NCBI GenBank assembly: GCA_012295275.1 | Contig: CM022675.1 | Span: 17,298,001 to 17,362,000 of the forward strand | Origin: Chrysomallon squamiferum | Lineage: Eukaryota > Animalia > Mollusca | Direction of reading: 5' to 3' | Length of the DNA: 64,000 bases | In this document: piece after piece, positions 24,691 through 64,000 of the stretch | How positions within the stretch are numbered: the stretch's first letter is position 1 | Layout: each line of letters opens with the position of its first letter | Program-made: the position numbers and the translations under genes | The notes under the pieces: generated by a model | The model's database searches: none | What the model saw: the letters and a program-made list of their open reading frames with translations, nothing else | What the model was told of the DNA's origin: nothing

Positions 24691-24748
<58 letters not shown>

Positions 24749-30700: not shown

Positions 30701-31371
30701 ATAACTGTACAGTTCTAAATTAAAATATATATCATGGTTTTTAAAGGCAAATTTGCTAGCTCAGTATTCTAAATTAGTTTATTCTTCTTTAGAAATTCTG
30801 AGGTTGTCACGTAAATGAGTAAACACAGCCTCACATCAATCCATACTGGTAGTTGAAAAGATACATATTGTCTCCTGTATGCCCATATTTCTACCTGACT
30901 GTCACTCACCTCTTTACAAAGAGCCACCACAGTTAATACAGAACTGTCACTGGTTTCCTCAACAACCTTACAGATTGAAATTACTTACGTGGCTGACATG
31001 ATCCAGATTTGTCCTTCATGAATCCCTTGTTGCAAACACAAGTTCCATCTTTACATGTAGAGTTGGCTGTACAAGCATAATCTGTTACTGTCAGTTTTCC
31101 ATCATCACATTCCTTCACTAACTTGCAGTCTTTAGATATTTGTACATAGCCATCCTGTGAATAATAGTTTATTGTATTCACAGTACTCTTATGTCTTTAA
31201 CTGTATTTGTTAAACTTTTGTGGGTCTGTCATAGATGATAATGTTAAAATTAATGATACATGAAGTAACAACTGCAATAGCAATGGAGATAGAAAGAAGA
31301 AAAAAGAATATATATTGCAGTTGTTACTTCATGTATCATTAGTATTAACATTATCATCTATCTATGTATAT

Positions 31372-31412
<41 letters not shown>

Positions 31413-42339: not shown

Positions 42340-45300
42340 CATAATAATAACAACAACAACATCAGCAACAACAACAATAATAACAATATCAATAAATCAA
42401 ATATAAAATTCATGGTAATAATATTTTCAGCAATTTAGCTGATTATCTATTTATTTCTGGAAAAAGTAGTAAGATGTATTTTATTTATAAGCTGTTGTTA
42501 ATCTGTTTCCATCAATACTGAAAAATAAATGACATAACATTTTCAAAGCACCTACCCTTGCCAAAGAAATCAAGTATCGAGGATTCAAGTAATATACTAC
42601 AGGTCTTCTTCGTTTTCCTGGAAGTCTTCTTGGACCAAATTTCCAAGACCATCGTTTTTTAATCTTTTCTTTCAATCGTGGATCTAATAATAATAATAAT
42701 AATAATAATAATACAGTAATATGACATGGACTAAATTAAAAAAGAAGTTATATCCACTCTTTTATGTGGATAATGATACACACAAAATGATACACACTTA
42801 ACAATAATAACATAGTATTTGTTTGAACTGACCATATTCACAAATATAACTCTTTGTCTTGAAACAATCAGCATATTCTCTTGTTGCTGTTGTCTCTCCT
42901 GCCTGTCTATAGCGTGTTTGCCTCTGGATTCGTCTTCTTGCTAGTTTCTTGTATGTTAGCAGCAATGTCCTGTAAATATTTCTTCGCACATACATATTCT
43001 TTGATCTTAATCCTCTGAAGTTAAATCTGATGCCTATTCCATACATTCTAATGAATCTTTGTATTTTCCTGGCCAAATATTTTCTATATTTGTAGCTGTT
43101 TCGGTTCACTTTTCCCTTCCATCTTCTTGTTCTTGTTCGGATAAAGAATCTCCTCCTTGATCGTCCTCGTGCATTCCTAACCATGACACAACCCATTGTT
43201 TTGTCTTCACCAATGTCTAGCTCAGCCTGAGGAAGATCAACTTGAGTAACATGAAGGAGATTGCTAACACGTCGTTGTGTCACCATTTTGTTTCCACCAA
43301 TCCAGAATTCTGAAAAATAAACAAATATATTATTTACAGATGATTTAAAACAGATTAGTATAAAATTAATGGAGAATGATGTAGTAACTTTAGTAAAGAT
43401 TCTAGATACACTGTATATATATAGATAGTGTTACTCTACACTGTTATTGTGAAATGCCATGAAATCTGATAAAAGAGGAAAATACATTAATCAATAGTTT
43501 TTTTGTCAGGACATAATTATTTCATTATCAGTACATTTTTGAAATGTTACTTTAATATTTTCTTTATTGTTCCCAAATATTAATTGTTTAATTATTATTG
43601 AATATTAAAATAGCTATTTAAAAAGATTAAATGAGAAAGAAACTAGCTGAAATATATTATAACTATTATTTATTAACCAGAGTTTTATATATCTAAATTC
43701 TAATATAAAATGTAGGCATGTAACTTGTACTTGGCAACAAGAATTTCAGAGCTTAATTATCAGTTAGACATATTCCAGTATCTATATTATCATTACTCAA
43801 CAAGAATATGATTATATAATATTTGAAAGTGATTAAAAATAAGTGTCCTAAGTTTTTCAATCCCTTTTCACTATAAAACTAATGTGTATTTTATGGATAT
43901 TTCCTTAATTTCATTCTGTATCAGTTTTCAGTAAAGTATTATATTGCTAGTTGTCAGTGTGGCTACTTTGTGGGATAAAAACCTGAGCGGCAGAGATGTC
44001 TTGACAACACTATCTTCAGATTGGACTCATCAGCATCATTGTCTATTCGTGCAAGACGAGCAAGATCAGCTTCCATGGCACAGGCCAAAGCAGCATCATG
44101 ATGCTTCTTCTCTTCATACAGAACTTTGTAACATTTGTTTGTGCCAAATGTTCGGAATCCTCTGGGACATTTGATTTTCCTGTTTGGTTTACCTGTAAGT
44201 TAAATAATTATATACTTTGCATTCATGATATGCCAAATACATAATGTTTTTAGTGGGTATTTTTAAATAATCTTTCTTGACTGTATTACATATATATAGA
44301 GCTGCCTTTATTCTGTGATGGCAGAGTTACTGTTTGTATTTATTTACAAGTTTGTAATGAATATCTGATACTTACAGTGTCTTCCATCACCCTTGAATCC
44401 TTTGTTACACACACATCGTCCATTCAGCAAACACCGTGCATTCCTGGAACATTTACCAAGTTTTTCTTTATGTTCAACTATGTCACCGTCTTTATTTCTT
44501 ACACATGTGTATTTTGTGTGACAGTGGTGAATGTAATAGGATTTGGGATTGTCAACCTGCATCAGAAAATAAAATATTTTATTAAAATACATACGTATAT
44601 ACAGAAACACACGCACTCACACACATGCACACAGATAGATAGATAGATTAAAAAGTTACTAGCATAAATAAAGGGGGATCATTATTTTACCTTTTTTTTC
44701 CTTTTTCAAAAATCATTTTATATTATTTATCAACATAATATACAACTACAAACACACATGTGGTTTACCTGACTACCCCCCCATATATATATATAAATAC
44801 ATAAATCAAGATTCCAGACCTTCAGATGAGTGGTGATTATAAATTGTAGTTATCTTTAATGATTAATATTGGCTAATAACATTAAACAGAAAAAAACCCA
44901 TCATCTATAAAACTGTTACTAAAATATTATTATTTCAATGAAGCAGATTTTTGCAAAACTTGAATGAAAACACAGGTGTATTATTCCCAGGTTCATATTT
45001 ATTTTCCATTAATTAGTTTTATTATGTCACCACAAACTGGAATGAGATAAGAAAGTACAATTATTATGCCCTTAAAATATTTTTTTTTTTTTGTTTGTTA
45101 ATAAAATATAACATTATTTTACAAACCTTCAAGTAATGGCCATTAACAACACATCCACATGCCTCAGTTGGCACACAGTCATCTCCTTGTTTAACAAAAC
45201 CTTCATTACAGGCACAGTCTAATTGCTTCTCATCAACATTACAGTTTTCTTCTGCATCCAGGTCAGCACAGGTGTTTTCACACACACTGTGGATTCGGAA

Positions 45301-48300
45301 CGAAGAATGGCGAGGACATTTCTTGGCTGAAAGAAAATGTAACGAATATTTAACAATAGTCAGGAACATTAAAATTAACACATAAAAATAATAATATTAT
45401 ATGTTTTATATGTGACAAACCAAGACAAACATTCCTTCATTTATTTGGGAAACAGAACATCACCCAGAAAAAAAAAGATGCATTGGCTAAAACATGTAAA
45501 AAAATGACAAGAACTTTATTAAACACTGTTTTCTCCCTATCATGAAATTTAATTATAGGATAATTTAATGACTTTTTAAATCAATTCTAATTATTCCAGA
45601 CTTGGAAATAAAATTAAATATGCAAATTACAAATTATTTGCATGTTTGTATGCACAGTTAAAAATACATATTACATATTTTGGATTCAGTATGAATAATT
45701 AGGTTTGATTAATTTTTAAAAATGGGACAAACTAATTTTAGATCAATGTAAACAAAACAAGGCTATAATATACTTACTGCATTGTCCTTTACTTGCAGGG
45801 TAGATGTTAATAAGAGCATCAGCAAACATATCTTTAGCTGCTCCAGCAGCAGTTTTCAGGTTGTCACAGAATTCACGTTTCTGTTCATTGTTGCAGTAAT
45901 CTTCTTCACACTGGTCCTGAAGTTTTTTCAGGAAGTCACTGATTAAAGAACCATCACACATTTTTTTACCTTTCAGAGCAGTCATGAATGGTCCATTAGG
46001 ATCAGTAATCATTCCACATCGTGATTTAGATCGGATGAATTGAAGTTCTTTCTTACTGCATTTTTTCAGGACCTTTGTTGTGGTGCATCTGAAAATAAAA
46101 AATAATAATAATAAAAAAAAAAATTAGGCAATTCTAATATAATTTAATTGAGAATAAAATCAAGCTTTGTAATTTTAAGTGGAAGTGTCAGTTTGTATTT
46201 TACTGACATCTGAGTATCTAATTTATGAATATATAAATAAAACATACTTTCCAAACTGTTCATCTGCAAGCCATGAATCACCAATTTGTCTGGCTTTGTC
46301 ATTCCGGTTTCTTCCTTTTGGTTTGGCTCCATTTCTCAGTCTAAATTCCACGTCTTGTTTGCCATTGAAGTTTCCACAAAGACCTTGAACCTGATTTATG
46401 AAAATATGCTCAAAACACTGCATACTAAAATATAATATGTTTTTCTCGTTTTGTGCTTCTCTCTGTGGGTGGATATATATTTATGATTTCTGTGCAAATA
46501 TAGCTGAGAAAACCACCATCATTGATTTTATTCCCACTCTTGGTAATTTTGAAATCACTGTCATCATTAACCTTACGAAACATTTAGGAACATTTTTTCC
46601 TATATTTCTTTTCTATGTGCAGCTTAAGTTTAAATCAACAAAGAACATTTTTATGAGAATGATATGATAAACTCACCTTTCCTTGGTATGACATAGGCAA
46701 ACGAATCTGCACATATGTTGATCCATCAAACATTACTTCTAAGCAGTTAGACAGCTTAATTTTCACAAAACGTCCAAAATGGTCAATTTGCATTGAATAA
46801 CCATCCATATCTTTGTTCCATGGCAAGTCAATTCTTTGCATGGCACCAGGCTCTCCAATCTAGAAATGAAGATGTAAAAAATAAATAACCAAGTCATAGT
46901 TATTAAAAATTATACGTTACAACATCATCTATAATTATTACTTTCAAAATTATTTTGTATGTTGTTTATTAAAATGACACATATATAACTGAAATTACTT
47001 TAAAAGTTTTTATAACATTGACAACAACTTAAGTCAGTAAATTTTCTTTGTCATTTATAACTGAGTCAAAAAGAGAATAACAAATTTCAAAAAATGAAAT
47101 TTAAAGTAATATAGTATCTGCATTGTCATATCACAACTTACTTCAACAACTCTTCTCTGGCCAAGTTTAATTGTGTATTTGTCAAAGGTGCATATTATGA
47201 AGTCAGTCCATGAAGGACGACCCCTAGGTCTTCTCCTTTTGTGATTCTGGACCTTGCAGCTGAATGGAATAACTCCACTACCTCCAATTACTGTTGTTTC
47301 AGACATCACATATGTGCATACTCCCATAAAATCTAACCGCTTATGGCAAGCATCAAAGGATCTGTAATGTGGATCACCACTGGCAGTGCAGATTCCAACA
47401 GCTGGAATTTGAATATCGTTCTTAAGCATTATATATAATAAACACAAAGTTATAACTGAAATACTTTCTTGTTAGCCATATAAATATTTTCAGTTAAACA
47501 TTTATATATGAAACATATATACTGATAAGCATGCACATGTACACATAAACATATACCATAAATATAAATATATAAATATGAATTACACATTCATACACTG
47601 ATGAACAGAGAATATTTAAGTGCCATCAAAGTGAAAATATGTGTATTCACACAAAATATTTCAAATAAAAACATTTTACTCACTCTGACATTTTCCTGCC
47701 TGATCACAACAACTACCAGAACACTGTCCTCGGCTTCTTCGTCTTCTTCCTACACATCGGAAACCTCCTCTCATGTTTCTACACTTTGCTCCTCTAGCTC
47801 GGCAGATATTGCGATTTTTTTTCAGTGCACAGAAATTGATGACTGTATAAACAAAAATAGGGCTCAGAACAGGCAAGCAATCTTTTCTTTTCAAATTTAT
47901 TCATAATATAAAATATCACAATAAAAGTTCTGGAATAAGCCATGACAATGAAAGTTTTGTTTTTAACCCCAAAAAAAAAAAAAAAAAAAATAAAAAAATA
48001 ATAATAATAATTAAAATAATATGTATATTAAAGTATTTGACCAAAAGTAATTATCCTTGGTTAATTTGCTTTACAGAAAGACTACTGATAAAATGGAAAA
48101 TTAGAGTATAAATGAAACTAAAAATTGCTTGCCAAAATGACTGCAGAAAAGTAAGTTAGTATTTAGGGCACCATTTACAAGCTGACAATCCCAGTTCCAT
48201 GTATGCATTCGCACATGCACACACTCACCCACACCAAAATAAATCATAAATACATAACACCTGTACACACAAACATATTTCATAAACAGAAGTGTCCTTA

Positions 48301-50940
48301 TATTTAATACACAAGTCCAATACATAAATAATTATAATAAGCTGTTTCATAAAAAATCCATTTTAAATAGCAAACATAATGAGAAAACAAAATTGTATAA
48401 AAACTTTTAAGATCATAGACCAAGATGTTATATCAGTATTTGAAATAATGCAAAAGAACATTGAAATTAAAGATTTTTAAATTAAATTACTGGAGCAGTT
48501 TTGTTAATAAATAACTGCTTTAAGGATTTTTGCTAATATTAATATTTATAAGTAATGTATTTTTGCTGAACAATACAAAATAAAAGGAAAAATTATTTAA
48601 AATTTGTATTTGAATCATAGCTATAAATCAATTACTATCATATTTACTGTATGCTGCACATACACTTAAATATTCTTATTATTACTAAAACAAACTTGAT
48701 CATAAATACCCTTTTCACAGAGAACCTTGATTTCAAAGTCAGGACAGTTCCTTCCCCTACACAGAATACCACCTCCGTTTCGCCACAGAGAGCATGGTCT
48801 GGCAAATCGTCTGCCCCTGTATCTACTTGTAACATAAGGACCTCCTCTAACACGGCATTTGATAGCCTTGGGGTATCTGCATAAGTTTCTGATTCGCCTT
48901 CGGATTTTCTGAATAGAGCAAAATATTTTAAGAATACAATTAATAAATTTTATATTTTACTATAATAAATAGTTATTAAAAAATTACACCTAATACATTC
49001 TTCCATCTATAACATTTTAGAATTCTTATAACATTTTGTGCACTGATGGAGTAAAAAATATTATTAATTCATAAATTCTTTTGTTCAGTATTCTTCATTC
49101 ATTCAATTTCCAATTAAATAGGAAATATGTGGATGTCTCGGGCAATGTTTTTGTTTTTGTAAACATATATTTCAGACTTCCTAATACTCTAGAGTACTGT
49201 ATGTTCACTTAATATACACTCTATAGTCTAATGGGCATGTTTGTACAGGAACGTCATTACACATACCCTTGATTTGCGACACCTGTTATAACTCTCATAC
49301 TCATAGCGTTTAGATGGTCTATGGTTGTTCATCCAAGGAGTCCATTCATATTCATTAGGATCAACATTATTGGCTGTGAAAAATAATTATTTATCAACTT
49401 CAGTATAATAATAATAATAGTTATAATAGTTATAATAAATATTGATATAAAAATAGAGAAATAAATACAGAGTTTCAATAACAGTATAAAAATAAAACTT
49501 TAGTAAGTTCACAATATGCCTATTAATAAAATAATAATAATGAAAAAGTGTGACATACTAAATTCACAGCAGAATCCTGATCGTCTGTTGCAGTTGGCCA
49601 GAACTGGTCGTCCATGTCGGTATCTTTCAAAGTCAACCATGACACATTTGTTCTTCGTGAAGTCAGCAGTATCAAGAGCTTCTTCTTCAGCCTGTTTCTT
49701 GATAGCATGATCAGTCATCAGACCTCGGAATCTCTTAGCTCTGAAAGATCCTCCACACCTCATAATGAAATCTTTGACAGCGTCTATTTCACCTCTGGCG
49801 AAAGCTCTCCTAAGAGAGCCTCTTGTTGTACTTCTGAAAAATACCTGGTGGGAAATAAAGAGAAAGTTTTTATCCTTGACAGGAATCTGTAAACAAGTTG
49901 TTATGACTAGTACATTTTATAATTTTTCTACTGAAGGCAGAATATAATTCAAATTAATCTTAAAAGTGCATCAAAATAATGAAATATGAAATAAACTAAA
50001 TATATTTCAGCTTGCGAGAAAAAAATTAAGATGTTTCTGGTAATTCTAATTTATTTATTAGAAAAATGCAGACAGTCAACAAATTTAGAATTTTGGTTAA
50101 TTTATCTGTTTTTGATAGTTACAAGACACATGAACAAATTATGTTTTCAGAAGACGTTTTGAGCCAGTTTAAAAATAACTAATAAAAAGATTTACTACTG
50201 CCCATAAATAATGTATATGAAATGTGTACATATTTACAGATAATTTTATATTTATTATAAGGCTTTGATATCAGTAAAATCTTATTAAAACTCCATGTAT
50301 TAACATTTTAGTTTTTATGAAAATAATTTTAAAAGTACCCTTCCATGTTTGACTCTTTCCACTTCTCCTGCTTCTCGCAACACTCGTCTGAAATCTATAT
50401 CCACACCAGCAGACCACCGATTCCTCCTCCTCCCTAATTAACAAACATTTAGAACTTTATTAGAAAATGTTCATGTATACTTTAATTATTGTTTTGATTA
50501 TTGTAAAGTGCATTATTACTGATATGATGGACATTTGTTTGTTTGTTTATTTATCTTTTATTTACACTTACTTCGATTGAATCGACCAAGTCGTCTCATG
50601 CCAGCAACGATATTTTTGACTCTGAAAAGTTCACCACCAATCCTTCGGCATCTAGCAAATGCTTCAGCATATGTTGCACGACAGTTAGAGCAGTACAGAC
50701 ATTTACCTTCCACATTTTTGAATGGACGCGGACAGAAGAACACATTGGACAGGGCTGTATGAAAATAACATTAAAGTGATTTAAAAATAGGGGACAAAAT
50801 GAATGAAAGAAAGAAATAAAAATAACAAAAGGAAAAGTGAATGAATCAAATAGAAGAAAAAAGAAAGAATTAGAGATTAAGAAGAGAATAAATGAACCTT
50901 AAATATAAAAACTCCTTTTCTTAATAAACAATAGGAAGAA

Positions 50941-51009
<69 letters not shown>

Positions 51010-54000
51010 CTCTCTCTCTTGCTCTCTCTCTTGCTCTCTCTGATAAACCCAGGGACAAATTTTTCACAAAGTCAGCTACATTTAATGCTACTTTACTAAA
51101 CTTTAAAGATATGTTTATCAAAAGAGAATAAAAAATAAACTGGATAGTTTATGTGACAAGCTAATGGCTAATAATGAATTTGTTATCTTTTTTTTTCCAT
51201 TTTAGATTTAGAAAAATACTTAACACTGAAACATAATTTAATTCTGAATAATAAGCCACAATTTTTTTAAATATTATTTTCTGATTTAAAATAGAAATTC
51301 TGATTAGAAAATTGCCGGTTAAATTATATCTTTCAAGTCTAGATTTAGAATAGGTAATAGATGTAGTTAAAATGAAAACTATAAATCAAGAGGGCAACCT
51401 TTTTCGAGAAGCGGGCCACATGAGACATGGCTCATCCTCAGGTACTAATTTAGGTGATTAATGTTATTTTCCTTGTGAAATTAGGCGGGCCACTGAGAAA
51501 ACCGCAGTTTGCCCATGACTGCTGTAAATCCTTCGGTTTTATAATAGCTATATAATATTATTTTTAAAAATTCATACCTATGCATTCTTTAACAAAATCT
51601 CGTCGTCCGTATCTTCCGTATTTAGATCGGCCTCTGTAACAACGACACTGAAGTCTGCTGGAACATCTAGCATTTCTGGGACATCGGTTTCTTTGGCCTC
51701 TCACATATTTCACCTTGCCATTTACACATCGTCGCGGACTTCTGCAGCCTTTCCTAAGGAAGAACCCTTCTCCGTGCTGTGTAATAAAACAGCATCAGTT
51801 CAAATTATTTGACGCTAGAATTCACGTTATTGTATATTCACTTAATAATCGAGTACTGTCGAAACGGTTCATCACCCTCCCCGGTATAAGGCATTCTCGT
51901 TTACTGCGTCCTCCCCCAAAAAAAAATTCTTGAGCTCCAAACATCTGAATTAAAAATATACATTATTTTTTCTCGTTTTGCAGTCCCCAGGCTATCTGCA
52001 AGCACAATAAAATTACCCAATAAACAGCCATCAGCCGATCATGTCTACCATATCAACTTGTAAGCTGATCGGACTTAAGTCAGACATCTAAGTTTACTGA
52101 ATCCATATTTTCTTTGTATAGTACTGTAAGTAATCACCTTGTTTGAACCTTAAGTCTGCACATTTCTATTCTTTCTTTAGTAAGCCTTTTAATTAGTTTA
52201 AATCAAACACAATTTGCTCTGCAGTATGTTTAATATTTGATACGTAAAAAGGAAGATCCATTTCCAATCATTCCGATATAAATTTTATTTATCTCTTTGT
52301 GCACTGTAAAAACAAGGATGTCGAACTTCTCATTAACGCAGTTTGTAAGCATCGAAACCTGTATGATACTAGTATACCAGAATATAGGGATCATGAACTT
52401 TCAGAAAAATCGAGGACTACAGTAAGCGTGGGTCCCTACAAAATATATAATATGAACTGCTATTGGTTTAAAAAAAAAAAAAAATGACGTGGATAATTCC
52501 TAAATGTACACTTTCCATTGAACGGCGAGTATTAACACAAACATGACTGTCGCTAAACTCAATTTTCTATACGAAAACATTTTTATTTTCTTGTAATTCC
52601 ACACTTCTTCCCAAAGTGTTTTTTAAGATTGTAATTAGGAAGCTTTGCTTTGTAAAAAATAATTCATATTCAAACATTTATTACACCAGTGAAAATATCA
52701 ATATTTGCATATGGCCGATACAGAAGTAATTAATTTGAACATATAAAATGCTAAAATATGGTTTTAATTCTTAATATATAAATTATAATTAATCATTAAA
52801 GTGAGACAAAACTTACTCTGTATGTTCTGTGGTTGACTCGGCATCGTTTACGGTACCTCCCTGTTTAAATATAAATCAGATTTGGTTTTAGTAAACTTTA
52901 ACATACATGCACACAGAGACAGTCATTTTCATATTTATTAGAGTAGAATATTATTTAGAAATTTAGAAGCCATAAAAGCAAAATTCAAATGTAATGCATA
53001 ACATACCAGAACATTAATAACGTAACAAATGCTTCCTTCTGAGTATTTCTCTATTAAGATATAAAAAACAAAAATTACTCACTGCGGCTGCCATCACGAT
53101 ACTCACCCAAATCAATTTGTTAGAGGAGTTTAAGAAACATCAGAAAGGTATATATTGAGAGAAAAAATATTGAAAATATTAAAACATGCAAAATAATGTA
53201 CACAAAGAAATCTAATAAAACATGCTACGAATAATATGCAAATGCGATTAAAACATGCTCTGAACATGCAAGTGCAAAAAAAAACACAAAAAAACACAAC
53301 AACAACAGCAAAATAAAAAAATAATTAAATAAAAAAATACAAATGAAACAGAAACTCCAAGGAAATTAAATTAATTCAGTTTTTTTTTTTTTTTTTTTTT
53401 TTGTTGTTGTTGTTGCTGCTGTTGTTGTTGTTTTGGAAAAATATTTTAATATCAATACCCATGATTTGTAATAATAATAATAATAACTGATCTCAGTTTT
53501 CATTATTCAAAATGAAAAAACATAGAATCTGAATTTATCTGTTATGCATAACCGCGTTCTTATGACTATTCATTTCGTAGGTTATATTTGGTTGTTTTTA
53601 TTATCGTCTGAATATGTTTGAATATTTAGATGGTTTATAAGGTATTGACTTTGTGAAAACGTTATTTTACTAGAAATATTTTTCGGGCTTCATACTCATA
53701 CAAACGTGCAGATTCATTTAAACTATGGAATTCAAAAAGGAATTAGAGATGTATTATGATTCAAAAGGAATTTTCATTTAAATTTAATATATTTGTTTAT
53801 CTTATATAAAAGATAAAGTGAAAAAAAAAAGGAGATTATTTCCGAATGCAGCATACACAATAATAATGAAACAATATTATAAAATGATAAAACTTTAGAG
53901 GAATTAGTTTGACGGATTTATTTTTTTGTTCCTTTTTAAACTATAAAATGTTTAACCTATTTGTAAGATTAGTACATTTGGTGGGGTATAATCTTACTGA

Positions 54001-56959
54001 ATAAATAAAAATATTTGCAATAAAATTGTTGTGTTCATGCTCTTATATTTAACTATATAAAATATATATAGGGTAGCTCAACGCCTAAATATCAGAGATC
54101 ATATAATATAGCCGCTAACTGGTGTCTATATTAGCTTCCATCTGAAAAATGTCCTTTGCGCCCAGAAACGAAGTCGATTAATAAAGACGATTGTATCTTA
54201 GATTCATTTTATTATTTTCGTCAAGTTTTTAGTAAAATTCATATATATTTTTTTAGTTTATTAGTTTTTTTATTTAGTGTCTACAAACCATATAAAACAA
54301 AATATGTCTGCCATTTCCTCTCAGATAATACTTTTTTTTTTCTGCCACGAAGATTTATTGAAATATTATTGTCAGATAGTTTATTATTATTATTATTATT
54401 ATTTCAATAAAGTTTATAAGCACGGGCTTATTTGCTATCTGATGAAAGATACCTATAAATATAATAATTTTCAAAACAAGTAATGCAGAAATATTGGATT
54501 GCAGATTAAAATAAGTGAACTCGTTTTCAATATTACGCACAGAATCACAGAAATATAATTCTTTAATTAATAACTGGAGTAAAACATTAAAAAAAAATGT
54601 ATATCACATAAAACAGGAAATTTAGAATGCTTCCTACCATTTATTATCAAAATGCGTGTAACAACGACATCGAAACAATGTTCTATGTAAATAATCGTAT
54701 ATGATTACATTTTATCGTAGTTATTTAAACACAAGTTGTAAAATTATTAATTGTTTAAGATACACATATAATTTTGATTAAAAGATTTCTTTGAGATAAT
54801 TCATCAATTTTAAGGATGTGTTTGTGGGTGGGTGGGTGTGTTCAGATAAATCAAAATTTCAAGTAAAAAGTATGGAGTAATAATGTAGATATATAAAAAT
54901 AGTCACTCCACAAAAAATAAAAGTAATAAAAATAATAAAACAATAAAAAATATAAAGAAAAGAGAAAGAAAAGGAAATTGTATGTATGTGTATATATATA
55001 AGAAAATATTTTATGATATGGTAAAAAATAGAAATGTCACCATTATAAACAAATTAAATGCACAACTAAATTTAAGGAATTTTTTCAAAGTTAAAAATTA
55101 AGTCAAAACAAAAGTGTATCTACGTACTACGATGTCTTCTTATATAACGTATCCACCATCTCTCTCGACCTGAAACAAGTTCATTAAATTTCTTTTAAAT
55201 TCTTCATAAAAAATATAGATATTCATTAAAATAATTAAAAAATTTATGACGCAACAATTTATAATTTCATATAAAGTCAACATCTTTTAATTAATTTATT
55301 TGTTTCTTTGTTTTATTGAGCTAACAATTTTAACGTATTTTTTCAAGACAAAATGATAACGCTAACAAGAAAGGTCAATAACATATTGAGATATAAACTA
55401 CTTTTTACTAACCTAGACCACGATGTCTTCTCAGCCATCGTCTCCAGTACTTGCCACCTCCTGAAATAATTGAATTACATTTCTGTTTATGTTCTTGTAA
55501 TGTTTATTTTATTATCTATTTCGATAATAAAGCATTCAAAACACTGTAAACTGATCAAGGACATACGGCCCCTCTTTCAGAATAAGAAATTATTTCGACC
55601 AGTCATACCTTTTACTTACAAATGATCCGTTCTCTCTAATCATATGATGCTAAAAATTACTGATAAAATCTATTAAAATAAAACAGAAAAGACCGAACCT
55701 GGTTTATTTAAAAAAGAAACTAAGTGTAATTATTATTATTATGATTATTATGATTATGATTATTATTGTTGTTGTTGTTGTTTTTTGTTTTTTTTTAAAG
55801 TATAATGTACTCACGTCTAAATGCTCTTATTCGACTTCGACTTGGTCCTGCGTGAAATAATAAAGAAATTCACATAAAGAAATTCACGTGAAAAAAAGAA
55901 AAACAAATGTACATAAATTACTTAAACGTATTTTCAAAACACGTAAAAACACGAAAAAACAATATTTTGATAAAATTGATATTCCACCTCTTCTTCTTCT
56001 TCATTTTCTTCTTCTAATCATTTACAGTTATAATGTTTGAAAAAGTAGAGCGAGAATGTCAGTTAACCTCAATCTTCTCATTCTGCGCTTCTATTATCAT
56101 TATTACTTTTCTTCTTCTTACTATTATTATTATTATTATTATTATTATTACTGTCATTATTATATTTACTTCTATGATGTCGATGTCTTCGTAGCCAACG
56201 TCTCCACCATCTCTCTCTTCCTATAAAGAAAAACAAAATAAAAACATTCACATGTAAGTGAATATCTTCAATATATTTTTCAATTTCTAAATATTTTATT
56301 TTATTATACTAAACAACATACTAACCTCGACCACGATGTTTTCTCAGCCATCTCCTCCAATATTTTCCACCACCTGAAATCAGTGAATATCAATATTCTT
56401 AACTTTCTTTATCCAACTAAATTTACTAGTTGTCGTGCAAAATGGCAATACAGTGGTCATAAAACATAAAGAAAAATTCAGTTCTTCATCTTCTTCTTCT
56501 TCTTCTTCTTCTCCTTATTATTATTATTATTATTATTATTATTGTCTTGATTTTTGCTGTTCTTGTTGATATTATTACTATTATTCTACACATCTGAAAA
56601 TTATAACTATATAAATATCCTAATGTTCATAATATCCAAAAATTAACTAACTGAAGTACCACAATTCTTTAATATGGAAAAACACACAAAATTATACTAA
56701 CGTCTGTAAGCTCGAATTCTGCTTCTGCTTGGCCCTAGAAGAGAATAAATCAATCGAATATTAGTAAATAAATATTTTAATACTAAAAATATACTTATCC
56801 TTTTGCTACAACAGATTTATCTAAAATGCAAAAATATTCTTTGTTATATTCATTTACTGCTATTATTTTCTCAAATGTTAAATCTGTATTTCCATTAGCC
56901 TCGCCATTTCAAAAATTATTTTCATATTATCATCACTGTCATCGTCATCATCATCGTTA

Positions 56960-57017
<58 letters not shown>

Positions 57018-57853
57018 AATTATTATTATTATCATCATTATAATTATTATATTTACTTCTGTGATGTCGATGTCTTCTCAGCCAACGTCTCCACCATCTC
57101 TCTCTTCCTATAAACAGTAAAAATAAAACAACTCGTGTGAGAGTGTATATCTCTAATTATGTTTTCAGTTATTCAGTATTTTCTTTCATTACAATTATAA
57201 TTACAAAAGTTTCACTAAACAACATACTAACCTCGACTACGATGTTTTCTCAGCCATCTCCTCCAATATTTTCCACCACCTGAAATCATTGAATATCAAT
57301 ATTCTTAACTTTCTTTATCCAACTAAATTTACTAGTTGTCGTGCAAAATGGCAATACAGTGGTCATAAAACATAAAGAAAAATTCAGTTCTTCTTCTTCT
57401 TCTTCTTCTTCTTCTTATTATTATTATTATTACTAATTTATTTTCTCGATGTTGGTGATCTTGTTCATATTGTTACTATTGTTATACACATGGGAAAATT
57501 ATAATTATATAAATATCCTAATTTTCATAATATCCAAAGATTTAAGCTAACTGAAGTACCATAATTCTTTGTTAGGGAAAAACACACAAAATTATACTAA
57601 CGTCTGTAAGCTCGAATTCTGCTTCTGCTTGGCCCTAGAAGAGAATAAATCAATCGAATATTAGTAAATAAATATTTTAATACTAAAAATATACTTATCC
57701 TTTTGCTACAACAGATTTATCTAAAATGTAAAAATATTCTTTGTTATATTCATTTACTGCTATTATTTTCTCAAATGTTAAATCTGTATTTCCATTAGCC
57801 TCGCCATTTAAAAAAATTATTTTCATTTATCATCATCATCATCATCATCATCA

Positions 57854-57893
<40 letters not shown>

Positions 57894-58274
57894 TATTATC
57901 AATTATTATTATCATCATTATAATTATTATATATTTACTTCTGTGATGTCGATGTCTTCTCAGCCAACGTCTCCACCATCTCTCTCTTCCTATGAACAGT
58001 AAAAATAAAACAACTCGTGTGAGAGTGTATATCTCTAATTATGTTTTCAGTTATTCAGTATTTTCTTTCATTACAATTATAATTACAAAAGTTTCACTAA
58101 ACAACATACTAACCTCGACTACGATGTTTTCTCAGCCATCTCCTCCAATATTTTCCACCACCTGAAATCATTGAATATCAATATTCTTAACTTTCTTTAT
58201 CCAACTAAATTTACTAGTTGTCGTGCAAAATGGCAATACAGTGGTCATAAAACATAAAGAAAAATTCAGTTCTT

Positions 58275-58305
<31 letters not shown>

Positions 58306-59161
58306 TTATTATTATTATTATTATTACTAATTTATTTTCTCGATGTTGGTGATCTTGTTCATATTGTTACTATTGTTATACACATGGGAAAATTATAATT
58401 ATATAAATATCCTAATTTTCATAATATCCAAAGATTTAAGCGAACTGAAGTACCATAATTCTTTATTAGGGAAAAACACACAAAATTATACTAACGTCTG
58501 TAAGCTCGAATTCTGCTTCTGCTTGGTCCTAGAAGAGAATAAATAAATCGAATATTAGTAAATAAATATTTTAATACTAAAAATATACTTATCCTTTTCC
58601 TACAACAGATTTATCTAAAATGTAAAAATATTCTTTGTTATATTCATTTTACTGCTATTATTTTCTCAAATGTTAAATCTGTATTTCCATTAGCCTCGCC
58701 ATTTTAAAAATTATTTTCATTTTATCATCATTGTCATCATCATCATCATTATTTTTATTATTATTATTATTATTATTTTTTATCATCATAATTATTATCA
58801 TTATAATTATTATATTTACTTCTGGGATGTCGATGTCTTCTCTTAGCCAACGTCTCCACCATCTCTCTCTTCCTATAAACAGTAAAAATAAAACAACTCG
58901 TGTGAGAGTGTATATCTCTAATTATGTTTTCAGTTATTCATTATTTTCTTTCATTACAATTATAATTACAAAAGTTTTCACTAAACAACATACTAACCTC
59001 GACCACGATGTTTTCTCAGCCATCTCCTCCAATATTTTCCACCACCTGAAATCATTGAATATCAATATTCTTAACTTTCTTTATCCAACTAAATTTACTA
59101 GTTGTCGTGCAAAATGGCAATACAGTGGTCATAAAACATAAAGAAAAATTCAGTTCTTCTT

Positions 59162-59192
<31 letters not shown>

Positions 59193-59631
59193 TTATTATT
59201 ATTACTAATTTATTTTCTCGATGTTGGTGATCTTGTTCATATTGTTAGTATTGTTATACACATGGGAAAATTATAATTATATAAATATCCTAATTTTCAT
59301 AATATCCAAAGATTTAAGCTAACTGAAGTACCATAATTCTTTATTAGGGAAAAACACACAAAATTATACTAACGTCTGTAAGCTCGAATTCTGCTTCTGC
59401 TTGGTCCTAGAAGAGAACAAATAAATCGAATATTAGTAAATAAATATTTTAATACTAAAAATATACTTATCCTTTTGCTACAACAGATTTATCTAAAATG
59501 TAAAAATATTCTTTGTTATATTCATTTACTGCTATTATTTTCTCAAATGTTAAATCTGTATTTCCATTAGCCTCGCCATTTTAAAAATTATTTTCATATT
59601 ATCATCACTGTCATCGTCATCATCATCATCA

Positions 59632-59675
<44 letters not shown>

Positions 59676-60507
59676 ATTATTATCATTATAATTATTATAT
59701 TTACTTCTGTGATGTCGATTACTTCTTAGCCAACGTCTCCACCATCTCTCTCTTCCTATAAACAATAAAAATAAAACAACTCGTGTGAGAGTGTATATCT
59801 CTAATTATGTTTTCAGTTATTCATTATTTTCTTTCATTACAATTATAATTACAAAAGTTTCACTAAGCAACATACTAACCTCGACCACGATGTTTTCTCA
59901 GCCATCTCCTCCAATATTTTCCACCACCTGAAATCATTGAATATCAATATTCTTAACTTTCTTTATCCAACTAAATTTACTAGTTGTCGTGCAAAATGGC
60001 AATACAGTGGTCATAAAACATAAAGAAAAATTCAGTTCTTCTTCTTCTTCTTCTTCTTCTTCTTATTATTATTATTACTAATTTATTTTCTCGATGTTGG
60101 TGATCGTGTTCATATTGTTAGTATTGTTATACACATGGGAAAATTATAATTATATAAATATCCTAATTTTCATAATATCCAAAGATTTAAGCTAACTGAA
60201 GTACCATAATTCTTTATTAGGGAAAAACACACAAAATTATACTAACGTCTGTAAGCTCGAATTCTGCTTCTGCTTGGTCCTAGAAGAGAATAAATAAATC
60301 GAATATTAGTAAATAAATATTTTAATACTAAAAATATACTTATCCTTTTGCTACAACAGATTTATCTAAAATGTAAAAATATTCTTTGTTATATTCATTT
60401 ACTGCTATTATTTTCTCAAATGTTAAATCTGTATTTCCATTAGCCTCGCCATTTTAAAAATTATTTTCATATTATCATCACTGTCATCGTCATCATCATC
60501 ATTGTTA

Positions 60508-60559
<52 letters not shown>

Positions 60560-63117
60560 AATTATTATTATTATCATCATTATAATTATTATATTTACTT
60601 CTGTGATGTCGATGTCTTCTTAGCCAACGTCTCCACCATCTCTCTCTTCCTATAAACAGTAAAAATAAAACAACTCGTGTGAGAGTGTATATCTCTAATT
60701 ATGTTTTCAGTTATTCAATATTTTCTTTCATTACAATTATAATTACAAAAGTTTCACTAAACAACATACTAACCTCGACCACGATGTTTTCTCAGCCATC
60801 TCCTCCAATATTTTCCACCACCTGAAATCATTGAATATCAATATTCTTAACTTTCTTTATCCAACTAAATTTGCTAGTTGTCGTGCAAAATGGCAATACA
60901 GTGGTCATAAAACATAAAGAAATATTCAGTTCCTCTTCTTCTCCTTCTTCTTCTTTTTATTATTATTATTATTATTACTAATTTATTTTCTCGATGTTGG
61001 TGATCTTGTTCATATTGTTAGTATTGTTACACACATGGGAAAATTATAATTATATAAATATCCTAATTTTCATAATATCCAAAGATTTAAGCTAACTGAA
61101 GTACCATAATTCTTTATTAGGGAAAAACACACAAAATTATACTAACGTCTGTAAGCTCGAATTCTGCTTCTGCTTGGTCCTAGAAGAGAATAAATAAATC
61201 GAATATTAGTAAATAAATATTTTAATACTAAAAATATACTTATCCTTTTCCTACAACAGATTTATCTAAAATGTAAAAATATTCTTTGTTATATTCATTT
61301 ACTGCTATTATTTTCTCAAATGTTAAATCTGTATTTCCATTAGCCTCGCCATTTTAAAAATTATTTTCATATTATCATCACTGTCATCGTCATCATCATC
61401 ATCATTGTTATTATAATTATTATTATCATCATTATAATTATTATATTTACTTCTGGGATGTCGATTACTTCTTAGCCAACGTCTCCACCATCTCTCTCTT
61501 CCTATAAACAATAAAAATAAAACAACTCGTGTGAGAGTGTATATCTCTAATTATGTTTTCAGTTATTCATTATTTTCTTTCATTACAATTATAATTACAA
61601 AAGTTTCACTAAACAACATACTAACCTCGACCACGATGTTTTCTCAGCCATCTCCTCCAATATTTTCCACCACCTGAAATCATTGAATATCAATATTCTT
61701 AACTTTCTTTATCCAACTAAATTTACTAGTTGTCGTGCAAAATGGCAATACAGTGGTCATAAAACATAAAGAAAAATTCAGTTCTTCTTCTTCTTCTTCT
61801 TCTTCTTCTTATTATTATTATTATTACTAATTTATTTTCTCGATGTTGGTGATCTTGTTCATATTGTTACTATTGTTATACACATGGGAAAATTATAATT
61901 ATATAAATATCCTAATTTTCATAATATCCAAAGATTTAAGCTAACTGAAGTACCATAATTCTTTATTAGGGAAAAACACACAAAATTATACTAACGTCTG
62001 TAAGCTCGAATTCTGCTTCTGCTTGGCCCTAGAAGAGAACAAATAAATCGAATATTAGTAAATAAATATTTTAATACTAAAAATATACTTATCCTTTTGC
62101 TACAACAGATTTATCTAAAATGTAAAAATATTCTTTGTTATATTCATTTACTGCTATTATTTTCTCAAATGTTAAATCTGTATTTCCATTAGCCTCGCCA
62201 TTTTAAAAATTATTTTCATTTTATCATCATTGTCATCATCATTATTATTATGATTACTATTATTATTATTTTTATCATCATAATTATTATCATTATAATC
62301 ATTATATTTACTTCTGTGACGTCGATGTCTTCTCAGCCAACGTCTCCACCATCTCTCTCTTCCTATAAACAGTAAAAATAAAACAACTCGTGTGAGAGTG
62401 TATATCTCTAATTATGTTTTCAGTTATTCATTATTTTCTTTCATTACAATTATAATTACAAAAGTTTTAGTAAACAACATACTAACCTCGACCACGATGT
62501 TTTCTCAGCCATCTCCTCCAATATTTTCCACCACCTGAAATCATTGAATATCAATATTCTTAACTTTCTTTATCCAACTAAATTTACTAGTTGTCGTGCA
62601 AAATGGCAATACAGTGGTCATAAAACATAAAGAAAAATTCAGTTCTTCTTCTTCTTCTTCTTCTTCTTCTTATTATTATTATTATTACTAATTTATTTTC
62701 TCGATGTTGGTGATCTTGTTCATATTGTTACTATTGTTATACACATGGGAAAATTATAATTATATAAATATCCTAATTTTCATAATATCCAAAGATTTAA
62801 GCTAACTGAAGTACCATAATTCTTTATTAGGGAAAAACACACAAAATTATACTAACGTCTGTAAGCTCGAATTCTGCTTCTGCTTGGTCCTAGAAGAGAA
62901 TAAATAAATCGAATATTAGTAAATAAATATTTTAATACTAAAAATATACTTATCCTTTTCCTACAACAGATTTATCTAAAATGTAAAAATATTCTTTGTT
63001 ATATTCATTTACTGCTATTATTTTCTCAAATGTTAAATCTGTATTTCCATTAGCCTCGCCATTTTAAAAATTATTTTCATATTATCATCACTGTCATCGT
63101 CATCATCATCATTGTTA

Positions 63118-63163
<46 letters not shown>

Positions 63164-63783
63164 TATTATTATTATCATCATTATAATTATTATATTTACT
63201 TCTGTGATGTCGATGTCTTCTTAGCCAACGTCTCCACCATCTCTCTCTTCCTATAAACAGTAAAAATAAAACAACTCGTGTGAGAGTGTATATCTCTAAT
63301 TATGTTTTCAGTTATTCAATATTTTCTTTCATTACAATTATAATTACAAAAGTTTCACTAAACAACATACTAACCTCGACCACGATGTTTTCTCAGCCAT
63401 CTCCTCCAATATTTTCCACCACCTGAAATCATTGAATATCAATATTCTTAACTTTCTTTATCCAACTAAATTTTCTAGTTGTCGTGCAAAATGGCAATAC
63501 AGTGGTCATAAAACATAAAGAAATATTCAGTTCCTCTTCTTCTCCTTCTTCTTCTTCTTTTTATTATTATTATTATTATTACTAATTTATTTTCTCGATG
63601 TTGGTGATCTTGTTCATATTGTTAGTATTGTTATACACATGGGAAAATTATAATTATATAAATATCCTAATTTTCATAATATCCAAAGATTTAAGCTAAC
63701 TGAAGTACTATAATTCTTTGTTAGGGAAAAACACATAAAATTATACTAACGTCTGTAAGCTCGAATTCTGCTTCTGCTTGGCC
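22379..63783 (-). CDS. Giant secreted mucin/FCGBP/zonadhesin-like multidomain protein (>3,300 aa in window, 5' end beyond 64000) with an N-terminal microexon-encoded Arg/Trp repeat
   Basis: Manually traced GT-AG exons, all phase-compatible, in transcript order after the microexon array: 52817-52860, 51578-51776, 50572-50754, 50339-50433, 49559-49844, 49267-49373, 48710-48908, 47684-47842, 47142-47401, 46677-46859, 46248-46390, 45778-46088, 45127-45326, 44376-44556, 43983-44192, 42833-43309, 42556-42683, 42080-42242, 41522-41653, 40893-41179, 40138-40475, 39256-39560, 38591-38814, 37742-37925, 36835-37032, 36182-36421, 35733-35824, 35296-35497, 34836-34964, 33401-33642, 32721-32998, 32135-32607, 31494-31693, 30989-31154, 30350-30454, 30022-30144, 29548-29676, 28972-29214, 28385-28471, 24765-24914, 23984-24190, 23472-23558, 23100-23192, 22879-23018, 22379-22462 (ends ...SCHC...YSVRRRR*). 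These 45 exons sum to 8666 nt, consistent with a phase-1 entry. Confidence 0.85.
23472..30454 (-). CDS. EGF, 2 x Ca-binding EGF, 2 x Kazal-like, TSP1-like and Pro/Glu-rich linker exons of the giant gene
   Basis: EGF_CA: [29 protein letters not shown] and DIDECKKSPC...CVNKNGGYVC. Kazal-like: APICEVGTSKTWPSICEFRASKC...EGAC and KVCKK...QY...RC...YGDC. TSP1-like (weak): FGPWKPKFKC...WC...GRT...QCNPC. Confidence 0.7.
25013..27822 (+). mobile_element. Full-length hAT DNA transposon (Buster/Charlie group), 2810 bp, intronic and antisense to the host gene
   Basis: TIRs CAGTGATTCTCAACC and (reverse complement) CAGTGTTTCTCAACC match at 14/15. A perfect 8-bp TSD, ATGTAAAC, lies at 25005-25012 and 27823-27830, with the central TA typical of Buster elements. 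Confidence 0.95.
25904..27649 (+). CDS. hAT (Buster/ZBED5-like) transposase, probably defective
   Basis: MDKFVKRK start, BED finger (CIVC...HFTTKH), VDESTD and CIDGA catalytic Asp motifs, HCFLH, VRWLS, LCELGFS catalytic Glu, and the family-typical QAQVSH* end. Confidence 0.9.
   Translation: MDKFVKRKDVSDGCEVETEHTMKPTKSSTKKAKVHHNRRYCDDYLKFGFSWSGDVAQPRPLCIVCGEKMANESMIPNKLQRHFTTKHSYLQDKDLNYFQRLLQQQSKQCNVFQKTMTVSERAQLASIESVILPACKKMVKSMLGETAEKEISKIPLSNDTIHRRIVDLSVNIETNVQKKLEGSKFALIVDESTDISNSAQLLVFVRFINDNEIINQFLCCKERPTTTRGQDIFDMITGYHKKMNLTWKFCVGICIDGAPCTVGCIKDFATLAQKENPNLVCTHCFLHREVLVSKVSQEDLKQVLHQVVEIVNSQHVRLLMHTDVRWLSKGKVLTRVHELQKELIVFFDKEKHERFCKYLRCEFWIAKMEYLTEIFCQLNIVNSSMQGRNENILTSTDKLVALKKKVVIWKNRAKLGEFDMFPTMRTNCTKEMIPIVVEHLTALEENIDHYFPSLNTEKYDWVRNPFVDVPSNIGFKLCEEEDLATISSDCSLKIKHSEVDIDTFWISIQKEFPALAEKALLVLLQFSTPYLCELGFSTLNNIKNKKRERLCSTEEEMRVCLSHIRLNIQEVIRQHQAQVSH
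31494..37925 (-). CDS. Super-module 3: TILa/EGF, C-type lectin-like, WxxW-like, EGF_CA, degenerate VWD, Pro/Thr-rich insert, C8, TIL-like
   Basis: CQEGWQQVLDKCVK...CNMQNGVLTSL...DC...FICQ (CTL); CPVPMGVSCR...CKKYEVRADC (WxxW-like); DVNEC...CVNLYGAYKC; YRKGMCGLC (VWD, no GDPH); TTTPPPETTAPP... Confidence 0.75.
33662..34260. repeat. Intronic minisatellite, ~54-57-bp unit built from AGT/AAT triplets
   Basis: The unit gtagaaacagtactactagtagttgtaatagattcagtaatagcagtagtaatagta is repeated about 9-10 times with variation. Confidence 0.85.
34387..34647. repeat. Diverged direct copy of 31911-32158 (intron plus the 3' end of exon 32135-32607)
   Basis: Collinear match acattgct.ttaattat...taatgaatacatt.ctttgta.tttacactttagta.attttataataatatt ... 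gttactt(a/g)caa...gagt.c.tgt.tttagca. The donor in the copy is GC instead of GT. Confidence 0.8.
38112..38464. repeat. Near-identical direct copy of 328-680 (homeobox exon 2 5' part plus upstream intron) inside an intron of the giant gene
   Basis: About 350 bp with only 4 substitutions seen by eye, bounded by (CT)n on both sides. Confidence 0.95.
38591..44556 (-). CDS. Super-module 2: TILa/EGF, C-type lectin-like with a cationic insertion, WxxW-like, EGF_CA, VWD, C8, TIL
   Basis: CPRGFRTFGTNKCYK...EFWIG...GCVMV...ADC...SYICE; DENEC...CYNLFGHYRC; CSAWGDPHP...NFQGACKYLL...YIGKLCGICG...FGNTWQV; CELTC...CTC...CVKPSDCGC. Confidence 0.85.
45127..52860 (-). CDS. Super-module 1 (Arg-rich): TILa/EGF, C-type lectin-like, WxxW, EGF, VWD, C8, TIL
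   Basis: CRVNHRTYRHGEGFF...C; CPRPFKNVEGKCLY...CRRIGGEL...NC...FCCE; EWTPWMNNHRP...CRYPKAIKCR...CPDFEIKVLC; CTASGDPHYRSFD...DFMGVCTYVM...VQGLCGNFNG...GDSW; CPRHSSF...CENTC...CACNEGFV...CVPTEACGC. Confidence 0.88.
51387..51521. mobile_element. Degenerate 135-bp hAT (Charlie-like) MITE remnant
   Basis: Ends CAAGAGGGCAACCT and (reverse complement) CAGTCATGGGCAAACT; flanking 8-mers CTATAAAT and CTGTAAAT match at 7/8; two internal GCGGGCCAC motifs. Confidence 0.6.
52317..52428 (+). pseudogene. MADF (Myb/SANT-like) domain fragment, likely a PIF/Harbinger relic
   Basis: DVELLINAVCKHRNLYDTSIPEYRDHELSEKSRTTV fits the MADF pattern LIxxVxxxxxL(W/Y)DxxxxxY(R/K)DxxxxxxxWxxV with the Trp lost. It is isolated and intronic. 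Confidence 0.5.
55128..63783 (-). CDS. 30 symmetric phase-1 microexons (10 C-B-A triplets) encoding a 44-aa Arg/Trp/His-rich repeat
   Basis: Lowest coordinates are given. C exons (33 nt, R-PSRSRIRAYR): 63751, 62857, 61996, 61147, 60247, 59374, 58496, 57602, 56702, 55815. B exons (48 nt, R-GGKYWRRWLRKHRGR): 63375, 62487, 61626, 60774, 59880, 58998, 58114, 57232, 56326, 55413. A exons (51 nt, G-RERWWRRWLRRHRHHR): 63200, 62312, 61451, 60599, 59705, 58820 (53 nt), 57939, 57057, 56170, 55128 (42 nt). Each has a pyrimidine-rich YAG acceptor and a GT donor (gttagt, gtaaat, gtgagt or gtacgt). Confidence 0.88.
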
Positions 63784-64000
63784 CTAGAAGAGAATAAATA
63801 AATCGAATATTAGTAAATAAATATTTTAATACTAAAAATATACTTATCCTTTTGCTACAACAGATTTATCTAAAATGTAAAAATATTCTTTGTTATATTC
63901 ATTTACTGCTATTATTTTCTCAAATGTTAAATCTGTATTTCCATTAGCCTCGCCATTTTAAAAATTATTTTCATTTTATCATCATTGTCATCATCATTGC
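56100..64000. repeat. Tandem array, ~850-900-bp period, 9 near-identical units, open at the window's right edge
   Basis: Landmarks such as cgtctgtaagctcgaattctgcttctgcttgg recur at 56701, 57601, 58495, 59373, 60246, 61146, 61995, 62856 and 63750. Length variation comes mainly from the (TTC)n and (TTA/TCA)n tracts. Confidence 0.97.

Follow-up and report, generated by a model that had tools for sequence, protein, structure and literature searches.

Does the satellite-like array at one end of a 64,000-nucleotide (nt) stretch of the Chrysomallon squamiferum genome (Mollusca) encode protein, and if so, to which gene does it belong and what might the product do? The stretch, hereafter the window, covers positions 17,298,001 to 17,362,000 of contig CM022675.1 (assembly GCA_012295275.1), and positions below are counted from its first letter. 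The array occupies 55128–63783 on the minus strand, where an earlier reading of the letters (the original prediction) had proposed that an apparent 'satellite' is really 30 microexons, encoding a polycationic Arg/Trp/His repeat fused to a VWD-lectin mucin. We conclude that these ten three-microexon cassettes, defined by AG/GT borders, phase, frame-specific constraint and splice scores, are almost certainly coding, and that they are probably spliced to the VWD gene lying downstream.

Islands were extracted by script from 63783 to 55128; all 30 were preceded by AG and followed by GT on the minus strand, as had been claimed. The exons recur in the order C-B-A with a cassette period of 849–900 bp, matching the ~880-bp unit first described. 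Exon C measures 33 nt and exon B 48 nt in 10/10 cassettes; exon A measures 51 nt in eight of ten, the exceptions being cassette 6, with 53 nt, and cassette 10, with 42 nt. Regular microexons are in phase 1-1, and 29/30 exons are symmetric with lengths in multiples of three, so that the predicted sizes (33, 48 and 51 nt, all phase 1-1) hold apart from the A exons of cassette 6 and of the last cassette. GC content is 48% in the microexons versus 26% across the whole array, of which exons make up 15%. A cassette translates into a 44-amino-acid (aa) Arg/Trp/His repeat; unit 1 contains 19 Arg, 2 Lys, 5 Trp, 4 His and 1 Glu, which reproduces the predicted composition with its single acidic residue. 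With a splice-score matrix trained on 26 exons of the host gene (two exon boundaries have since been corrected), microexon acceptors ranked in the 91st–99th percentile, and donors in the 92nd–99th, among minus-strand AG/GT sites of 22000–64000. A degenerate B-exon pattern, derived from these same exons, matched 10 times in the window and not once in 100 shuffles.

We used the most divergent cassette, unit 10, to assess coding potential because units 1–8 (96.5–99% alike) and unit 9 (~85%) were uninformative. The alignment of units 1 and 10 took in 104 nt: all of C and B plus the initial 23 nt of A, whose remainder was excluded for its length difference. The 21 base changes fell, in the Arg-rich frame, into 15 synonymous and 4 replacement codons, with no codon touching a stop; the other five frames gave 0–6 synonymous, 8–13 replacement and 1–2 stop-touching codons. 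When the same changes were placed at random, four or fewer replacements arose in 0/5000 trials (mean 12.6). NG86 estimates of nonsynonymous (dN) and synonymous (dS) divergence were 0.053 and 1.74, a dN/dS of ~0.03 that is rough, as dS is near saturation. The exons of unit 10 are 69–83% identical to those of unit 1, and its two introns retain only 53% and 41% identity, where shuffles give 52% and 37% (maxima 55% and 40%). Two alternative frames were rejected: one is stopped in all ten units, and the other is open only in units 1, 2, 4 and 6 and also fails the synonymous test. The pattern of substitution shows that the Arg-rich frame has been maintained by selection.

The array might instead be non-coding satellite DNA in which AG/GT islands occur by chance, as the homogenization of units 1–8 and the 15% exonic share would allow. 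That explanation is hardly credible: constraint with a dN/dS of ~0.03 in one frame only contradicts it, exons are kept beside introns at near-shuffled identity, and a multiple-of-three length in 29/30 exons would be a further coincidence.

How the array grew can be read from the relationships among its units. Cassettes 1–8 (56735–63783) are young and homogenized, with 96.5–99% mutual identity, introns included; their AAT/AAG/ATG microsatellites differ in length. Unit 9 stands lower, at ~85% identity. Cassette 10 (55128–55847; C 55847–55815, B 55460–55413, A 55169–55128), the 3'-most, is the oldest, its introns having about shuffled identity to those of unit 1 and its protein being almost unchanged. 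Its final microexon, 55169–55128, ends in phase 1 and is followed by GTACGT. At the other end, the last 217 bases of the window (63784–64000) are 97–99.5% identical to the A-to-C intron tail of eight other units; therefore, the array runs past 64000. The B and A exons have a common core (e.g., 63422–63375 and 63250–63200) that reads aromatic-Trp-Arg-Arg-Trp-Leu-Arg-basic-His-Arg, so the cassette itself likely arose from an earlier duplication of a single microexon. Unit identities and the contrast between exons and introns support expansion by tandem duplication of an exon-intron cassette, as originally proposed.

The predicted stop-free domain of at least 437 aa did not survive as assembled. 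The 30 exons total 1313 nt, and the spliced frame shifts at the A exon of cassette 6 (58820–58872, minus strand; 53 nt, with two extra bases in a dinucleotide run), after which 9 stops follow. Omission of this exon leaves 29 exons encoding 419 aa with no stops (177 Arg, 46 Trp, 31 His and 9 Glu). No usable splice site that would rescue the 53-nt exon was found nearby; the sole in-frame alternative acceptor scores -7.9. Cassette 6 carries three private +1/+2 insertions in short runs, and units 1–8 have only one other such insertion outside microsatellites (in unit 7), a clustering that looks like local read error, though this is not proof.

DNA run X1, which contains 0.83 of the sampled words of 46200–56190, provided a second view. 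Ten of its contigs fell on 58815–59140; one of 65 nt lacks the two extra bases, and a second, read by eye, also has the 51-nt spacing. The 53-nt form was absent among the pieces listed for that interval. Each of the three X1 contigs that span the B exon departs from the window sequence twice, so X1 may stem from another individual, and both a read error and a private allele are possible for the 53-nt exon. A 132-nt contig matches the B-A intron and part of exon A of the window with no differences. Two others keep the B exon and both splice sites within flanking introns unlike those of the window; the changes listed in these B-type copies comprise, by our own reading, 2 silent and 3 replacement codons and no indels. 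A loose end of X1 reads as a 45-nt A-type exon with a phase-1 end before GT, provided that its 5' portion agrees with the window. Because these B- and A-type variants are accompanied by unlike introns, more cassette subfamilies likely exist outside the window; the variants themselves probably lie there or in another individual.

These data bear on the idea that the oldest cassette is a coding relic and that the young copies are runaway or partly dead, skipped, or part of a broken allele, or else that copy number and frameshift are artefacts. The frameshift in cassette 6 speaks for it, as do the 5 replacement and 3 synonymous variants among the young copies and the difficulty of assembling copies 96.5–99% alike, introns included. 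We consider it very unlikely: 30/30 splice-site pairs are intact, the 132-nt X1 contig is identical to the window across the B-A intron and part of A, X1 variants keep the frame, and the units differ in private substitutions and microsatellite lengths.

To which gene, then, does the array belong? The 44-nt exon at 52817–52860 (minus strand) runs from phase 1 to phase 0, is 43% Arg and encodes the 5' half of a TILa-like module. It is followed in phase 0 by exon 51776–51578, and the two together align by eye with both internal TILa-EGF modules, whose phase-0 intron is in the corresponding place; the 44-nt exon is therefore a real exon that needs a phase-1 exon upstream. The last microexon provides one: its donor, at the homologous position, scores 6.2, above the training minimum of 5.2. 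In the 2.27-kb gap between them (55128 to 52860), ten ATG-to-donor candidates for a first exon included none that was usable, with no donor above 1.4. Arg makes up 25% of residues 1–150 of the downstream model. Because the phase fits, the gap holds no usable first exon and Arg stays high in the next exons, the array is probably spliced to the VWD gene in one transcript. The predicted chain of junctions, from the last microexon to 52817–52860 and on to 51578–51776, fits in all its phases.

The array could also close, as its 3' end, a different gene that lies upstream and encodes a polycation-only protein of the ap3 type, co-secreted with the VWD protein and unfused. Gly/Arg/Lys repeats do form a protein of their own, ap3, in Minona and Theama (PMC9229212). 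The last microexon, if unspliced, stops after three codons, and AATAAA occurs nine times in the gap. In that case, however, the VWD gene would need a promoter and a signal-peptide exon within 2.27 kb, where 0/10 candidates had a usable donor, and the last microexon would have kept a homologously placed donor in the training range. The stop past this donor says little, because B and C exons also meet a stop immediately past the donor if unspliced. A separate gene is distinctly unlikely.

The gene downstream was modeled from sequence, not from transcripts, as 45 minus-strand exons from 52860 to ~22379, with AG/GT at internal borders and an in-frame product of ~2,880 aa (7% Cys). Pfam searches of 36 exon-bearing open reading frames (ORFs) recovered VWD, TIL, C8, EGF and Mucin2_WxxW, several below cut-off, C8 among them; the lectin domains are weak (Lectin_C E 0.07) and are supported mainly by alignment. 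The N-terminal module (47684–51776) comprises Arg-rich TILa/EGF, C-type-lectin-like, WxxW and EGF exons, and model residues 1–433 have a net charge of +81. It is followed at 44376–47401 by VWD1 (GDPH at model residue 432), C8-like, TIL, TILa and EGF domains, with Pfam support for VWD, TIL and EGF_3. A second C-type-lectin-like domain (42833–43309) contains a 107-aa basic insert with 36 Arg+Lys and 2 acidic residues, and EGF, VWD2 (GDPH at model residue 1226), C8, TIL, TILa and EGF domains occupy 37742–41653. The C-terminal half (22379–37032) adds a third lectin-like/WxxW/EGF module, a degenerate VWD-like region, a short Pro/Thr stretch and EGF repeats; judged by eye, it closes with Kazal-like and cystine-knot-like ends and a stop near 22379. 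This half is near neutral, with a net charge of -7 over 1,477 aa.

The domain order resembles FCGBP, zonadhesin and sea-star Sfp1, all with repeated VWD-C8-TIL-EGF units and GDPH sites; Sfp1 is self-cleaved into four subunits (PMC9382459). A HMMER search with the VWD1 exon gave 350 matches, and the named ones among those looked up from the best 150 were mostly FCGBP- or zonadhesin-like. The VWD-C8-TIL units of gel-forming mucins are present here (Pfam VWD, C8 below cut-off, TIL). The richest Pro/Thr/Ser stretch in the exon model reaches only 36/60 residues, and by its sequence the downstream protein is FCGBP/zonadhesin-like, with 'mucin' a loose label.

Two other elements lie within the span of this gene. 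A 57-bp minisatellite at 33664–34261 is Thr/Ser-rich in the frame of exon 33642, with ~120 nt frame-shifted. No acceptor opening it was found; it is likely intronic, and a mucin-like extension containing read errors is possible. In an intron, on the opposite strand (25865–27649, plus), a 594-aa ORF has weak Pfam matches to DUF4371 and the hAT dimerization domain, suggestive of a hAT-type transposase.

We then compared the modeled protein with its relatives. Its best full-length match, Patella vulgata XP_055956933.1 (LOC126821996), scored 311 bits, and the next full-length match among 160 proteins 150. The limpet protein is colinear with the model in three BLASTP blocks at 25–26% identity (model 252–914, 1066–2102 and 2216–2589), was its reciprocal best within a set of 193 proteins, and alone was returned by a profile search at E <= 1e-20. 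Both share a lectin-WxxW-EGF-VWD-C8-TIL-TILa-EGF order, and each has two GDPH sites. In each, too, the corresponding loop of the second lectin-like domain carries a basic insert, which accounts for the break separating blocks one and two. Measured between shared Cys anchors, this insert is 107 aa (36 Arg+Lys) here versus 608 aa (285 Arg+Lys) in the limpet. The limpet polycation is thus an internal Arg/Lys/Asn/Ser/Gly repeat without Trp, whereas the large repeat here is N-terminal, Trp/His-rich and built of microexons. The limpet record begins inside the first lectin-like domain, and anything more N-terminal is not in the record. Among the 160 proteins, five have a 44-aa segment with at least 11 Arg, and of these the limpet protein alone (21) comes up to the Arg content of the array repeat.

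This limpet protein can be tied to adhesive mucus. P-vulgata_4, an 830-aa protein ending in an Arg repeat that matches the repeat of XP_055956933.1, was, like P-vulgata_1, reported from all three mucus types and localized to glands of the pedal sole (Kang et al. 2020, PMC7333891). Among 12 primer frames tested, primers for P-vulgata_4 and P-vulgata_1 matched XP_055956933.1 exactly (6/6 and 7/7 residues) at residues 110 and 1599, flanking the repeat that starts at 782; a different frame of the P-vulgata_4 primer also agrees at 6/7 residues elsewhere. P-vulgata_4 and P-vulgata_1 are therefore likely halves of one gene, split at the Arg repeat.

Other relatives were more distant or fragmentary. 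Among the best 150 of the 350 HMMER matches, the closest relative of VWD1 was P0016, a single-exon ORF 72% identical over VWD1. It shares a contig with P0162, the closest relative of a neighboring gene of the window, which suggests that gene order is kept in a relative. A partial Lottia gigantea protein (P0129) is 42% identical to the limpet VWD1 region and is likely a further limpet member. The B-exon pattern had 0 matches in metagenome contigs. A VWD1 scan of 180 stretches gave 21 loci, all distant or short, of which none matched the repeat by tblastn, and the Arg-insert exon was found in 0/120 candidates among longer proteins.

What might the array do? Our preferred reading, held with moderate confidence, is that it supplies polycationic cohesion to an adhesive-mucus protein of a gastropod, in the manner of Mlig-ap1 from the flatworm Macrostomum lignano. 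The glue option, one of two roles raised in the original prediction, is strengthened by the best full-length homolog found, which comes from limpet pedal mucus and has an Arg repeat of its own. In Mlig-ap1 a lectin-VWD-C8-TIL-EGF core is flanked on either side by Lys/Arg regions; attachment fails in the presence of heparin, and a cohesive role has been assigned to the protein (PMC6410801). The likeness lies in very basic terminal repeats on such a core, with a proposed cohesion that polyanions block. In Mlig-ap1 and ap3, by contrast, the repeats are Lys/Arg/Gly(/His/Ser) low-complexity sequences of more than 3,600 aa, with no Trp-Arg helix motif described in the parts of those papers available to us (PMC6410801, PMC9229212). 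An Arg-rich stretch was also seen in the M. lignano protein P0147. In C. squamiferum, the terminal basic repeat and the lectin/VWD/C8/TIL/EGF core are both present and in phase, and probably form one chain. That the VWD protein is built like the limpet protein was tested by alignment; that it works like Mlig-ap1 is argued by inference.

In the mechanism we envisage, the array would be spliced onto the front of the large VWD/lectin/EGF protein, giving it a positively charged N-terminal arm, with a net charge of 0.45 per residue. The protein would be secreted from foot glands, where its Cys-rich VWD core may cross-link by disulfides and self-cleave at its two GDPH sites. The arm could bind sulfated or carboxylated glycans and anionic surfaces, and Arg-Trp cation-pi contacts might strengthen it in salt water, much as has been suggested for Mlig-ap1 and its Lys/Arg regions. 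Arg-aromatic pairs drive condensation. Two predicted amphipathic Trp-Arg helices per repeat would contribute to cation-pi cohesion; their helical hydrophobic moment was reached by 3% (B) and 1% (A) of 2000 shuffles, and the C exon is not amphipathic. Unequal crossing-over between 880-bp cassettes could change repeat number, and the symmetry of the exons would permit skipping of a broken copy.

With the array still joined to the VWD gene, its main job might rather be antimicrobial or antifouling, with tethered or released Trp/Arg amphipathic peptides protecting the mucus. In their cores, B and A combine positive charge with abundant Trp and a predicted amphipathic character, and they may resemble the Arg/Trp-rich peptides indolicidin and tritrpticin. 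There are 54 dibasic sites in the 419 aa. Molluscidins of oyster and abalone gill are cationic dibasic-repeat peptides without an anionic pro-region (PMC5577615). Myticalin-type precursors, however, have an anionic pro-region and a dedicated dibasic cut site (PMC5577615), an arrangement the array lacks: no anionic pro-piece or spacer is present, each 44 aa contains a single acidic residue, and just 2 R-X-K/R-R sites occur in 419 aa. A trypsin-like protease would yield nothing longer than 4 residues. The limpet homolog, moreover, keeps a polycation without Trp, pointing to charge as the common feature. The antimicrobial half of the original alternative, a polyprotein of peptides, is weakened by the missing anionic spacers and the two cut sites, and we consider an antimicrobial main job rather unlikely, although antimicrobial and cohesive roles can coexist.

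Several observations weigh against the cohesion reading. The 608-aa limpet insert contains no Trp, so no homolog backs a role for Trp. Identity to the limpet protein is only ~26%; the tissue may therefore differ (gill, mantle or egg-mass mucus). Expression of P-vulgata_1 and P-vulgata_4 was reported as 737 versus 17 FPKM (PMC7333891), which is awkward for a single limpet gene. Within the array, one of 30 exons (58872–58820) is frameshifted as assembled, and the eight scorable exon variants of units 1–9 (5 replacement, 3 synonymous) mean that the young copies show no clear constraint of their own. The unspliced last microexon meets an in-frame stop 3 codons past its donor and the gap contains 5 acceptors scoring at least 5, which together leave a separate gene its small share of probability. 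The signal-peptide exon lies beyond 64000, outside the window. A search for RNA runs covering 46200–56190 returned none, and three RNA runs chosen by study gave 0 contigs on 58815–59140; these two results count neither for nor against expression.

The layout, which the original prediction set against the single large exon usual for mucin and adhesive repeats, has a counterpart. SmPoMuc genes of Schistosoma mansoni already contain ~1-kb cassettes of a 27-bp exon plus introns, with >93% identity, microsatellites and concerted evolution (PMC2576457), and schistosome micro-exon genes use symmetric microexons with skipping (PMC4015677). SmPoMuc and the present array share tandem exon-intron cassettes near the 5' end and microsatellites, at 849–900 bp and 96.5–99% identity (units 1–8) in our case. 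SmPoMuc differs in having one 27-bp exon per cassette and mucin repeats, in a parasite, whereas here three different exons per cassette encode a polycation ahead of a 2,880-aa VWD protein, so the likeness is in layout only. Our searches of the open-access literature turned up no array of three-exon cassettes that gives this protein family a Trp/Arg/His polycation. As far as we have searched, then, what is new is the combination; its parts have precedents in flatworm cationic cohesion and schistosome microexon cassettes.

Elsewhere in the window, two intronless paralogs on the plus strand (11898–13091 and 19492–20328) share a ~170-aa domain; their N-termini are hydrophobic, and their flanks are rich in Asn, Gln, Gly and Met. 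The neighboring intronless gene had 16 matches, of which the 13 named ones were all from Haliotis (43–55% identity; multi-copy, uncharacterized). An Atlas lead for the ~170-aa domain pointed to a Cu/Zn superoxide-dismutase-like family (score 0.91); by eye the domain has a single His and is therefore probably not an active enzyme. The paralogs are possibly co-secreted mucus proteins. A cephalopod egg-cement reading was dropped, since the named relatives of the neighboring gene are all Haliotis and the best homolog of the VWD protein comes from a limpet. A homeodomain exon lies at 153–389 on the minus strand (Pfam E 1e-20), which we take to resemble rough. A 353-bp direct duplicate (328–680 versus 38112–38464, 98.9% identity) places the start of this homeobox exon and its intron in a VWD-gene intron 38 kb away, and is either a recent duplication or an assembly artefact.

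Most of what is known about gastropod glue proteins comes from short-read transcripts, which fragment at repeats, and the window supplies a near-complete gene model for this protein family. Neither repeat masking nor trypsin proteomics (longest tryptic piece 4 residues) would reveal the coding domain in its array. Digestion with Glu-C is predicted to yield 44-aa pieces. The 44-aa Arg/Trp/His repeat is a candidate cohesive motif that can be synthesized. In a broader picture, which we think improbable, dozens of microexons in several subfamilies would be spliced in varying number and order, adjusting both the length and the chemistry of the Arg-Trp-His cation-pi arm of a DOPA-free, splicing-controlled wet adhesive, and limpet and abalone orthologs would hide similar N-terminal arrays missed by gene models.

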